This document shows, piece by piece, positions 8,714-8,757 of a stretch of DNA of 64,000 bases (the first letter of the stretch is position 1; each line of letters begins with the position of its first letter). The DNA is from an uncultured Gammaproteobacteria bacterium (lineage in GTDB: Bacteria > Patescibacteriota > Patescibacteriia > UBA1558 > S5-K13): assembly GCA_964486685.1 (NCBI GenBank), contig CAZAOE010000003.1, positions 5,306 to 69,305 on the forward strand, written 5' to 3'. The notes under the pieces were generated by a model. The model searched no databases. It was given only the letters and a program-made list of their open reading frames with translations, and was not told the origin of the DNA. The position numbers and the translations under genes are program-made.

Positions 8714-8757
8714 CTACCCCTCCTACAACCTAATAAGCTACAAACTAACCCCTAACC
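8714..8757. repeat. dispersed repeat family copy (CCTACAACCTAATAAGCTACAAACTAACCCC) abutting the rplI ATG
   Basis: near-identical to copies at 15254, 21484, 44706, 60941. Confidence 0.75.

Follow-up and report, generated by a model that had tools for sequence, protein, structure and literature searches.

The dispersed repeats in a 64,000-nt stretch of contig CAZAOE010000003.1 of an uncultured bacterium (assembly GCA_964486685.1; this whole stretch is called the window hereafter) are the local, mostly one-armed form of an intergenic spacer element that is found across Patescibacteria, also known as the candidate phyla radiation (CPR). In its complete form the element consists of two arms: a G/T-rich arm of about five words of the type CTTnnTAG, starting from the stop codon of the upstream gene, and a C/A-rich arm of about five complementary words, CTAnnAAG or CTACAAC, extending to 4 to 7 nt before the ATG of the downstream gene. 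The arms have the potential to pair, and in relatives the loop between them may hold a small gene of family PF05635. The element appears to be undescribed, no account of it in Patescibacteria having been found in the literature searched (a limited library), and its link to PF05635 and to rRNA intervening sequences appears to be new as well. We favour, with some hesitation, the reading that it is a transcribed cis-element for Shine-Dalgarno (SD)-independent translation initiation or coupling, which would be related to the rRNA intervening sequences that are excised by RNase III.

The initial annotation had described the repeats as a family of two modules, often abutting start codons. The eight places that it listed do hold the repeats as described, but a parse into units (split at CTA, CGC or TGC) does not yield two separable modules. 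Each copy is instead one array of 7- to 8-nt units in a single register, with CGCAAAA or TGCAAAA first and CTACAAC, CTAATAAG or CTAACCCC after. The arrays hold 4 to 14 units each and are 34 to 105 nt long, their unit strings differ between copies, and their sense strand is G-poor. In this window of about 30% GC, which is poor in SD motifs, CTACAANCTAA was found 17 times at one mismatch or less, against 6.98 +/- 2.46 matches after shuffling, and none of 100 shuffles got to 17; the A-rich module AAAACGCAAAAYGCAAAA was found 12 times at three mismatches or less, against 1.03 +/- 1.10. Six arrays have at least four CTA triplets 7 to 8 nt apart, on the plus strand only (8723-8754, 15274-15313, 21489-21512, 44733-44764, 44778-44803 and 60940-60973), and there are none in 381 kb of unrelated control loci.

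Five loci in the window carry the CTA words. At three of them (8714, 15254 and 21484) the array reaches an ATG, with the last CTA 5 nt ahead of it, and these copies are solo C/A arms in leaders. Another (44706) lies 5' of a promoter, and the last (60941) is antisense, a solo G/T arm after a stop codon. The genes named beside these copies in the initial annotation, rplI (8760), a DUF7670 membrane protein (15319), prfB (21518) and an ISL3 transposase (44898), agree with the Pfam matches. The array at 8714..8759 (plus strand; CTACCCCTC CTACAAC CTAATAAG CTACAAA CTAACCC CTAACCAT) makes up the entire 46-nt spacer between the stop codon of an acylphosphatase gene and the ATG of rplI, with a predicted minimum free energy (MFE) of 0.0. 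At 15254..15318 (plus strand), two CGCAAAA units are followed by CTAATTT, CTACAAC, CTAATAAG, CTAACCCC, CTACAAG and CTAACC, and then, after 2 nt (TT), by the ATG of the DUF7670 gene. This copy lies 3' of a terminator-like hairpin (15194-15226) and of an extended -10-like TGATATAAT, the latter read by eye, and a consensus promoter scan of 15150-15330 found no promoter. Just 5' of it, at 12962-15180, genes for an HNH endonuclease, an N6/N4 DNA methyltransferase and a DUF6996/DUF6997 protein are clustered, which may represent a restriction-modification or defence island. CGCAAAA-type units recur within the 3' end of the DUF7670 open reading frame (ORF; 15319-15687) at 15631..15672 (plus strand). 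The Pfam match covers residues 3-107 of 122, and the copy (15636-15672) codes for the C-terminal tail of about 15 residues past the domain.

The third start-abutting array, CTACAAC CTACCCC CTACAAC CTAACC at 21484..21517 (plus strand), is directly 5' of the ATG of prfB and inside a predicted leader of about 85 nt, downstream of a promoter TTGATA-17-TATTAT at 21400-21428. The prfB gene itself (21518-22612) is one unbroken ORF of 364 aa, without a programmed +1 frameshift; many of its distant relatives match only from residue 21-22 on, as expected for the frameshifted form.

The longest copy (44706..44810, plus strand) has about 14 units, CTAAAAG CGCAAAA TGCAAAA CTAATTC CTACAAA CTAATAAG CTACTCC CTACAAAC CCAAAAAC CTAACCCC CTACAAG CTAATAAG CTAATTCCCC. 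An ISL3-family insertion sequence (44811..46133, plus strand; Pfam DDE_Tnp_ISL3; ends GGCTCTAT...ATAGAGCC), which is not part of the element, sits at its 3' edge, as had been noticed earlier, and is bracketed by the direct repeat TAATTCCCC (44802-44810 and 46134-46142). Minus this insertion the array would adjoin, on the 5' side, a promoter TTGACT-17-TATATT at 46143-46171. The units TGCAAAA TGCAAAA CGAAAAG CGTAAAA at 46759..46805 (plus strand) lie between the terminator of gene 46273-46710 and the -35 region of an mscS-like gene (46891). Right after the stop codon of 48069-49178, an A-rich array CTAAAAA TGCAAAA CTACAA CTAAAAA with the inverted partial copy already seen in the initial annotation occupies 49181..49290 (plus strand); its arms are in reversed order, C/A first, and its predicted fold has -16.2 kcal/mol (z -2.1). 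The stop codon of 60986-62143 (minus strand) is where a G/T-rich, TAG-type array begins (60939..60995, minus strand; on the plus strand CTAATTCC CTACAAC CTAATAAG CTAACCCC CTACAACC), and next to it comes the promoter of thrS (60919-60892). From this promoter to the TTG start of thrS extends a GC-rich and apparently structured leader of about 160 nt (minus strand, 60730-60890), for which the whole-window scan gave no Rfam family at the gathering score. The copies at 44706 and 46759 are 5' of predicted promoters and not in leaders, and the one at 60941 is antisense to both flanking genes.

A protein of identical sequence ties the window to Logan assemblies of the run SRR8437218. The same words are found far outside the window. 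An exact scan for the 18-mer CTACAANCTAATAAGCTA in a collection with one genome per species gave at least 113 stretches (the listed loci), on which the counts for relatives are based. By our own estimate about 70 matches are expected by chance for 17 fixed bases in 596 Gb on both strands, so the raw count means little; the signal lies in the taxonomic concentration and in the array context. Most listed loci come from records with CPR names, at 25-61% GC, including Patescibacteria, Parcubacteria, Peregrinibacteria and the Buchanan-, Kerfeld-, Azam-, Moran-, Uhr-, Chisholm-, Doudna-, Falkow-, Komeili- and other CPR groups. Around the 18-mer, the arrays of these relatives use the units CTACAAG, CTAATAAG, CTAAAAAG, CTACAAC and CTAAGAAG. 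Of the 83 loci that bear a CPR name or that of unclassified bacteria, 76 have at least one array of four or more units, as do 13 of 14 loci from third-party assemblies labelled Gammaproteobacteria or Bdellovibrionales, labels which we suspect to be wrong. The corresponding number is only 3 for the 16 loci named as other non-CPR taxa, among which are cultured non-CPR organisms where the match is a lone 18-mer. Viral contigs scanned with the 18-mer gave four matches, all attributable to chance, inside one phage ORF family or another ORF and without arrays. The window and the related loci contain no rRNA, the 16S of the organism included. With its words in more than 100 listed loci, mostly from Patescibacteria, the element clearly extends beyond the window.

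The association with start codons in an SD-poor genome, which the initial annotation had found intriguing, proved to be real and general. Where the downstream gene is co-oriented, the distance between array end and start is 14 nt or less for about 70 of 92 arrays in the listed loci and peaks sharply at 4 to 7 nt. The arrays are phase-locked to the ATG: G peaks at positions -9, -17, -24/25 and -32/33, the consensus before the ATG is AAGCTAAAAnT, and the ATG takes the position of the first bases of a further unit. That these are true starts is evident from the N-termini of EF-Tu (tuf), L21 (rplU), S8 (rpsH), L6 (rplF), S4 (rpsD), L36 (rpmJ) and GroEL (groEL). Pfam matches for the 69 array genes include S8 (four times), L6 (three times), S3, L5, L3, L21, EF-Tu (twice), GroEL, SecY and ClpP. 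An SD motif was found in none of these 69 genes, but in 11% of 726 others; at -11 to -6 the arrays hold AAGCTA, which is not GGAGG-like. The region from -35 to -1 is devoid of ATG, GTG and TTG in 96% of array genes, compared with 38% of the others.

In relatives, the C/A array usually has a partner: a complementary G/T-rich array (CTTnnTAG), 0 to 50 nt upstream of it. The order G/T then C/A was observed in 61 pairs and the reverse in 2 (35 and 1, respectively, in co-directional spacers). The G/T arm begins at the upstream stop codon or a few bases off, and its first TAG is often the stop codon itself. For 29 spacers with both arms, the median length is 101 nt, and the predicted fold has -32 kcal/mol and about 32 bp; it includes the stop codon among the paired bases in 13 of the 29, and in 25 the last pair lies 2 to 12 nt ahead of the ATG. 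In a ribosomal-protein operon of a Parcubacteria genome, the spacers S14-S8, S8-L6, L6-L18, L15-SecY and the one after SecY consist solely of such elements, and a related genome keeps this architecture with a different vocabulary at one spacer.

These stably folding paired copies could bring to mind a stand-alone small structured RNA gene, one of the possibilities raised in the initial annotation, but this we regard as scarcely credible. The CTA-type copies in the window are unstructured, with predicted folds of 0 to -5 kcal/mol, the arms do not covary, and there are no promoter or terminator signals belonging to the element itself. Scanned with Rfam 15, the window and eight relatives gave only tRNAs at threshold; the other matches, all below threshold, were to miRNA-precursor models and were read as generic hairpins. 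As to these, G/T arms (for example that of L045, minus strand, around 3870-3970) give sub-threshold matches to let-7 and other miRNA-precursor models. Arms such as GGTAGTAGGTTGTAGGG are very similar to let-7, and RNA scans of metagenomes may falsely report G/T arms as let-7-like hairpins.

A promoter role is very improbable as well, whether as a promoter module, an UP-element or a promoter for leaderless mRNA, in which the words would start transcription at or near the start codon. It is true that arrays ending with CTAATAAG place TAAGCT, a possible TANNNT -10 box, at about -12 to -7, 6 to 7 nt before the ATG, and that the A-rich CGCAAAA/TGCAAAA units at 46759 are just 5' of a -35 region. However, the last unit is often CTACAAG or CTAAAAAG, which leaves no TANNNT; since its presence depends on which word happens to come last, the leaderless variant was rejected. 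Consensus scans put the -35/-10 pairs outside the arrays, and in the operon just mentioned arrays fill every spacer. The prfB locus speaks in the same sense. In the closest prfB relative found (L119; 79% identity, 29% GC) the promoter block is conserved, while the array is absent and about 55 nt directly 5' of the ATG are missing. The conserved promoter upstream places the array of the window in the 5' leader, and the comparison with sister genomes that had been proposed thus does yield a presence/absence polymorphism.

A further component of the element came from the listed loci, in which several arrays are preceded by a small gene with a product ending in ...EVMRMLNKMI. A profile built from these products found 13 such genes, which belong to the Pfam family 23S_rRNA_IVP (PF05635) and have weak similarity to bAvd. 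Their flanks are the inverse of those of all other genes: PF05635 genes lie inside the arms and the others outside. A G/T arm ends at the ATG of 7 of the 13 PF05635 genes and of 19 of 781 other genes, and a C/A arm starts at the stop codon of 7 of 13 and 22 of 781, respectively. Both arms are in this inside arrangement for 4 of 13 against 1 of 781 (Fisher p = 2e-7), and at least one of them for 10 of 13 against 40 of 781. The ordinary arrangement, with a C/A arm upstream (80 of the 781 other genes) or a G/T arm downstream (79 of 781), was seen for none of the 13.

The family is large, a single PF05635 protein having at least 7991 homologues in the protein collection. To avoid ascertainment by the 18-mer, eight homologues on long contigs were picked by protein homology alone. 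In all eight contexts the upstream stop codon (TAG in seven) leads into a G/T arm, which is followed by the ATG and later the stop codon of the PF05635 gene, then by the C/A arm and the next ATG. The neighbours on either side of the inserted gene are those for the small and large subunits of a hydrogenase, pilin genes, grpE and dnaK (two genomes), corA and cysS, a degV-type and a thiolase gene (two genomes), or dnaN and an ORF. In the relatives L199-L208, L112, L078, L034, L093, L058, L079 and L017, PF05635 genes are placed exactly between two adjacent genes, in several cases within evident operons. Hairpins without an ORF retain the loop-proximal AGGAAG...CTTCCTAA, which in the full cassettes brackets the ORF. 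There is no PF05635 gene in the 64-kb window. The family is functionally uncharacterised; its members are encoded in rRNA intervening sequences, including those of CPR rRNA genes, which are cut out by RNase III and are thought to be horizontally transferred (PMC11270868). CPR bacteria keep rnc (PMC12641178), and PF05635 proteins have a relative in Avd, which belongs to diversity-generating retroelements (PMC10053308).

On this basis a wider interpretation is possible, which we put forward as tentative. The element could be a superphylum-wide, self-insulating intercistronic cassette, a PF05635 (Avd-like) gene between two portable 'adaptor' arms, of which hundreds of ORF-less hairpins and solo arms would have been co-opted for initiation or coupling. 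One arm would give the upstream gene stop codons in every frame, and the other would provide the downstream gene with an SD-independent start region. By pairing in the mRNA, the arms would cause the insert to be looped out or excised by RNase III, as an mRNA counterpart of the rRNA intervening sequence. The ORF-less hairpins and solo arms, those of the window included, would then function as a general initiation or coupling signal in SD-poor CPR. It could be imagined that a conserved factor recognises the co-opted arms, for which S1, the ribosome itself and the PF05635 protein are candidates.

The same mechanics would hold if the cassette were purely selfish, a reading that differs from the favoured one only in who benefits and that we find doubtful. 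The PF05635 gene with its arms would then be a mobile or horizontally spreading, intervening-sequence-like entity that colonises spacers. Its arms would do no more than neutralise the damage, through stops in all frames, a usable start region and a looped-out insert, and empty hairpins and solo arms would be decayed or miniature forms without benefit to the host. The very large family and the PF05635 genes positioned precisely between arms at six independent sites within operons would fit such an entity, as would the remains of full cassettes in empty hairpins, the presence and absence at prfB, the replaced vocabulary at an orthologous spacer and the horizontal transfer assumed for intervening sequences (PMC11270868). 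A comparison of two grpE-IVP-dnaK loci (L201 and L208) is also of interest here: the PF05635 gene is 94% identical at the nucleotide level, where dnaK is 87%, the C/A arm 90% and the G/T arm only 44% identical, with a two-fold length difference between the G/T arms. Recent exchange, gene conversion or a strong constraint acting on the small gene may be the cause. On the other hand, neither a transposase nor target duplications nor fixed ends were found, the two arms do not match in unit number and order, the C/A arm is conserved as strongly as coding sequence, and the window has no gene of the family. Moreover, we know of no mobility mechanism for PF05635.

The proposal in the initial annotation of a MITE-like repeat (miniature inverted-repeat transposable element) has to be divided. 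In the strict sense it does not hold, no terminal inverted repeats or target site duplications being visible and both length and unit strings being variable; the only target site duplication in the region belongs to the ISL3 element. The looser idea of something mobile survives, in that the arms of relatives flank a PF05635 gene in the manner of a cassette. The copies do not behave as matched doublets of repetitive extragenic palindromes (REP/REPIN), since the pairing of native arms is no better than that of arms exchanged between loci and the unit numbers of the two arms show no correlation. The window also has a gene resembling a REP-associated tyrosine transposase (RAYT), with GC-rich palindromes and not arrays in its flanks.

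That gene (23941-24441) encodes a Y1 transposase which fits the RAYT model better than IS200, scoring 41.6 bits against NF047646, under the cut-off of 80. GC-rich imperfect palindromes of the type GGGGTT(G/C)CAGCCCC lie in its flanks (23860-23925 and 24480-24510) and also at 12790-12830 and 58725-58760, and gene and palindromes may form a separate REP/RAYT system. The gene is of some relevance to the quite improbable view that the arrays act at the DNA level, as binding sites (double-stranded or hairpin DNA) for the Avd-like PF05635 protein, a RAYT or a nucleoid protein, with a role in mobility, recombination or transcription. Besides the presence of this gene, the palindromic AGCT core of the commonest word would suit such sites, and so would the inverted arms, which are alike on both strands and fold equally stably on both. 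The number of about five units per arm even invites comparison with Avd, which is pentameric. Yet nucleotide-exact register to stop and start codons is hard to explain at this level, the RAYT-like gene is flanked by its GC-rich palindromes and not by arrays, and CCTACAA and other vocabularies have no palindromic core.

Such other vocabularies are well represented in the window; indeed, it is only with them, and not with the CTA type, that full hairpin spacers occur there. The spacer at 17450..17611 (plus strand) has an arm of ATACGAAT/ATACTAAT/ATACCAAT after the stop codon and one of ATTCGTAT/ATTAGTAT/ATTGGTAT that reaches the ATG of 17612, and from stop to start codon it folds with -42.5 kcal/mol (z -6.5). 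A second stop-to-start hairpin spacer, of the ATTCGTAT vocabulary, extends up to the ATG of 48069 (47926..48068, plus strand; -30.1 kcal/mol, z -4.5), and a third, partial one uses the ATACGAAT/ATTCGTAT vocabulary (30662-30825, plus strand). An 8-nt array of about seven units CAATTNAN fills the spacer up to the ATG of 40337 (40280..40336, plus strand), and a repeat scan gave similar arrays of the unit ACAATATA (52731-52764) and of GTAAATT (36217-36254). Spacers with inverted arms of other 7- to 9-nt words are also found at 43389-43610, 34898-35048 and 36051-36249. The inverted-arm vocabularies are ATACGAAT/ATTCGTAT, AATTTTC/GAAAATT and GTAAATT, and several of these spacers fold from stop to start with -30 to -43 kcal/mol (z -4.5 to -6.5). 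In relatives a like layout is found with CCTACAA/TTGTAGG, CCTATCA and CACTAAAACCTAAT. A test that is blind to the words, scoring 7- to 9-nt periodicity over the 40 nt 5' of starts (p <= 0.01), identified 19.7% of CPR-like leaders (10.8% without the CTA type), 9% of those in the window and 2.9% in controls.

This diversity makes it necessary to consider a neutral origin, which we nevertheless judge unlikely: slippage would expand 7- to 8-nt units in tolerant spacers until a stop or start codon is met, and orientation would be filtered only by the avoidance of spurious starts. Heptamers are the commonest long simple-sequence repeats in prokaryotes, with slippage as the proposed cause, according to the summary of Mrazek (2007) given in PMC4679880. 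Several properties agree with such filling: many unrelated vocabularies in one window, right arms that are often perfect tandem copies, a quick turnover in which words are replaced at an orthologous spacer, and an ATG at the position of the next unit. It is less easily reconciled with the number of units, as arrays with 3, 4, 5, 6 and 7 CTA phases were counted 68, 80, 108, 19 and 5 times by exact-match chaining, which undercounts imperfect arrays. This distribution is unlike that of free slippage, because it peaks at 5 and falls sharply at 6 instead of decaying monotonically. The AT-rich words remain the same in genomes with as much as 61% GC and in many classes, the arm order is 61:2, PF05635 genes are specifically inside the arms, and periodic leaders are 4 to 7 times commoner in CPR-like loci than in controls. 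The conservation of the C/A arm points in the same direction: between two S8-L6 spacers it is 90% identical, compared with 87% for the genes and 75% for the G/T arm plus loop. Together with the grpE-dnaK loci, this suggests that the C/A arm is the constrained part of the element, on the strength of two comparisons only.

The preferred reading, initiation or coupling independent of SD motifs, can be envisaged as follows. The element would be transcribed within the mRNA. Its C/A arm, being G-poor, without SD, nearly free of competing AUG, GUG and UUG and with little structure of its own, could serve as a ribosome-loading leader. When both arms are present, they would form a stem of about 32 bp that loops out the intervening sequence, whether this is nothing or a PF05635 gene, and that places the upstream stop close to the downstream start. 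Coupling would result if a ribosome, on terminating, opened the stem at its base and so made the next start available. The stem could also be a substrate of RNase III, like that of rRNA intervening sequences.

A number of observations do not favour this scheme. Array leaders are barely more accessible than others, with an MFE of -6.7 against -8.6 kcal/mol (p = 0.12) and an unpaired probability of 0.51 against 0.48 (p = 0.05); because this trend is only weak, an exceptionally unstructured leader is not established. G-poverty of the start-abutting arm is not universal either, since one of the non-CTA vocabularies in the window has a T/G-rich arm at the ATG. Arrays are present even in convergent spacers, although these lack a start codon (14%, 8 of 56, against 27% of co-directional and 15% of divergent ones), two window copies (44706 and 46759) precede promoters instead of lying in leaders, and the prfB relative L119 manages without an array. 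As to the stem, sense folds are no more stable than antisense folds (-25.6 against -28.6 kcal/mol; -31.7 against -32.1 for the inverted repeat alone), and there is thus no G-U signature of selection on a hairpin in the sense RNA. Pairing is no stronger for native arms than for those exchanged between loci (-0.88 and -0.96 kcal/mol per nt, respectively), and paired arms show neither a correlation of unit numbers (r = 0.00) nor a matching unit order. The swapping result speaks against a recent inverted duplication or a transposition signature; it is compatible with pairing, because all arms of one vocabulary pair with one another. Finally, the 113 listed loci were picked by the element's own 18-mer and are biased to the AGCTA vocabulary, and their genes were called by a longest-ORF rule.

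Some further repeats in the window deserve mention. Despite its GC content of 30%, the window holds two copies of the GC-rich perfect palindrome CCTGCCTGCCGGCAGGCAGG (11055-11074 and 30781-30800), and similar CCTGC..GCAGG palindromes are present within array spacers of relatives (L031 and L084). A minus-strand ORF (2640-3122), preceded by one of the few strong SD motifs of the window, consists mostly of degenerate 15/18-nt repeats, with 13 copies of a 39-nt register of ACCAGCGGCAATAAC-like units. The first spacer has perfect tandem repeats, the 20-nt TTTAACCCCTCGACAAGCTC in 2 copies and the 18-nt AAAGCTACGGAAGTCAAG in 2.6 copies (22-61 and 254-299), and related AAAGCTACGG motifs are found near tRNA genes (around 10990-11010) and near thrS (around 60760-60780).

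How translation starts in Patescibacteria is poorly understood, and in the loci examined only about 11% of the genes have an SD motif. The arrays offer a conserved and easily recognised candidate signal at the starts of ribosomal-protein, EF-Tu, GroEL and SecY genes, and they mark true start codons and gene boundaries in metagenome-assembled CPR genomes. For PF05635, or the 'four helix bundle' family, the position inside array-armed hairpins between cistrons is a first rule of genomic context, which ties the family to rRNA intervening sequences and RNase III.

Among known systems, REP/REPIN sequences with their RAYT and MITEs such as the Neisseria Correia elements are short, dispersed, intergenic hairpin repeats, and Correia elements are co-transcribed and cut by RNase III. 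The CPR element shares with them its shortness, dispersal, intergenic position and hairpin formation. It differs in having no single consensus, no terminal repeats or target duplications and no matched arms, and in being registered to stop and start codons with words that are common to a superphylum and not species-specific. As a possible working mode, the omega leader of tobacco mosaic virus comes to mind, which is G-poor, CAA-rich and repetitive and enhances translation without an SD, as do the intercistronic hairpins of phage T7, where RNase III cleavage frees the next initiation region. This comparison would concern function only and not membership, as there is no sequence relationship.

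The cyanobacterial heptamer repeats, STRR, said to have been described by Mazel et al. in 1990, are likewise contiguous heptamers near start codons, as are those of Nostoc. In Nostoc PCC 7120, heptamers such as (TTCAAAA)3 and (GACYAAT)8 are found at distances of up to 30-100 nt from start codons or promoters and sometimes over the start codon; a regulatory or translational role is suspected, and experiments have so far been inconclusive (10.1101/2022.06.06.494920). Cyanobacterial repeats have other words in another phylum, and a stop-to-start hairpin architecture is unreported for them; no STRR tandems were found in the window or the listed loci.

With rRNA intervening sequences, known also from CPR rRNA genes, the element has in common complementary ends that give an extended stem and an optional PF05635 ORF in the loop (PMC11270868). 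In relatives it thus shows two of the four defining features, the stem around the insert (seen in the window only with non-CTA vocabularies) and the ORF in the stem-loop (at least one inside arm for 10 of 13 genes, and all eight homology-picked contexts), and it does not lie within rRNA. An intervening sequence is tolerated by the host RNA because RNase III excises the stem (PMC11270868); for the CPR element cleavage is only inferred. All its copies lie between protein-coding genes and not in an rRNA helix, its arms are periodic word arrays registered to stop and start, and an ORF is lacking in most copies.

Among described systems, the one most like the element is the TAACTGA heptamer family, direct repeats of marine Beggiatoaceae and some Cyanobacteria and Bacteroidetes (MacGregor 2015, PMC4679880), although no TAACTGA tandems are present in the window or the 113 listed loci. 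The CPR units are mixed 7- and 8-mers of several vocabularies. In addition, the CPR element usually has an inverted partner arm, where only one inverted repeat was reported for BOGUAY, and it is linked to PF05635 genes, which are absent from that account (PMC4679880). For the TAACTGA repeats, too, function is unproven, and a translational role through S1, Csp or CsrA has been proposed (PMC4679880). The likeness is nevertheless considerable: TAACTGA sets are tandem 7-nt units (2 to 6 per set), mostly intergenic and 'forward', that end a few nt from a start codon without a ribosome-binding site, are present in ribosomal-protein operons and in some cases overlap the end of the upstream ORF (PMC4679880).

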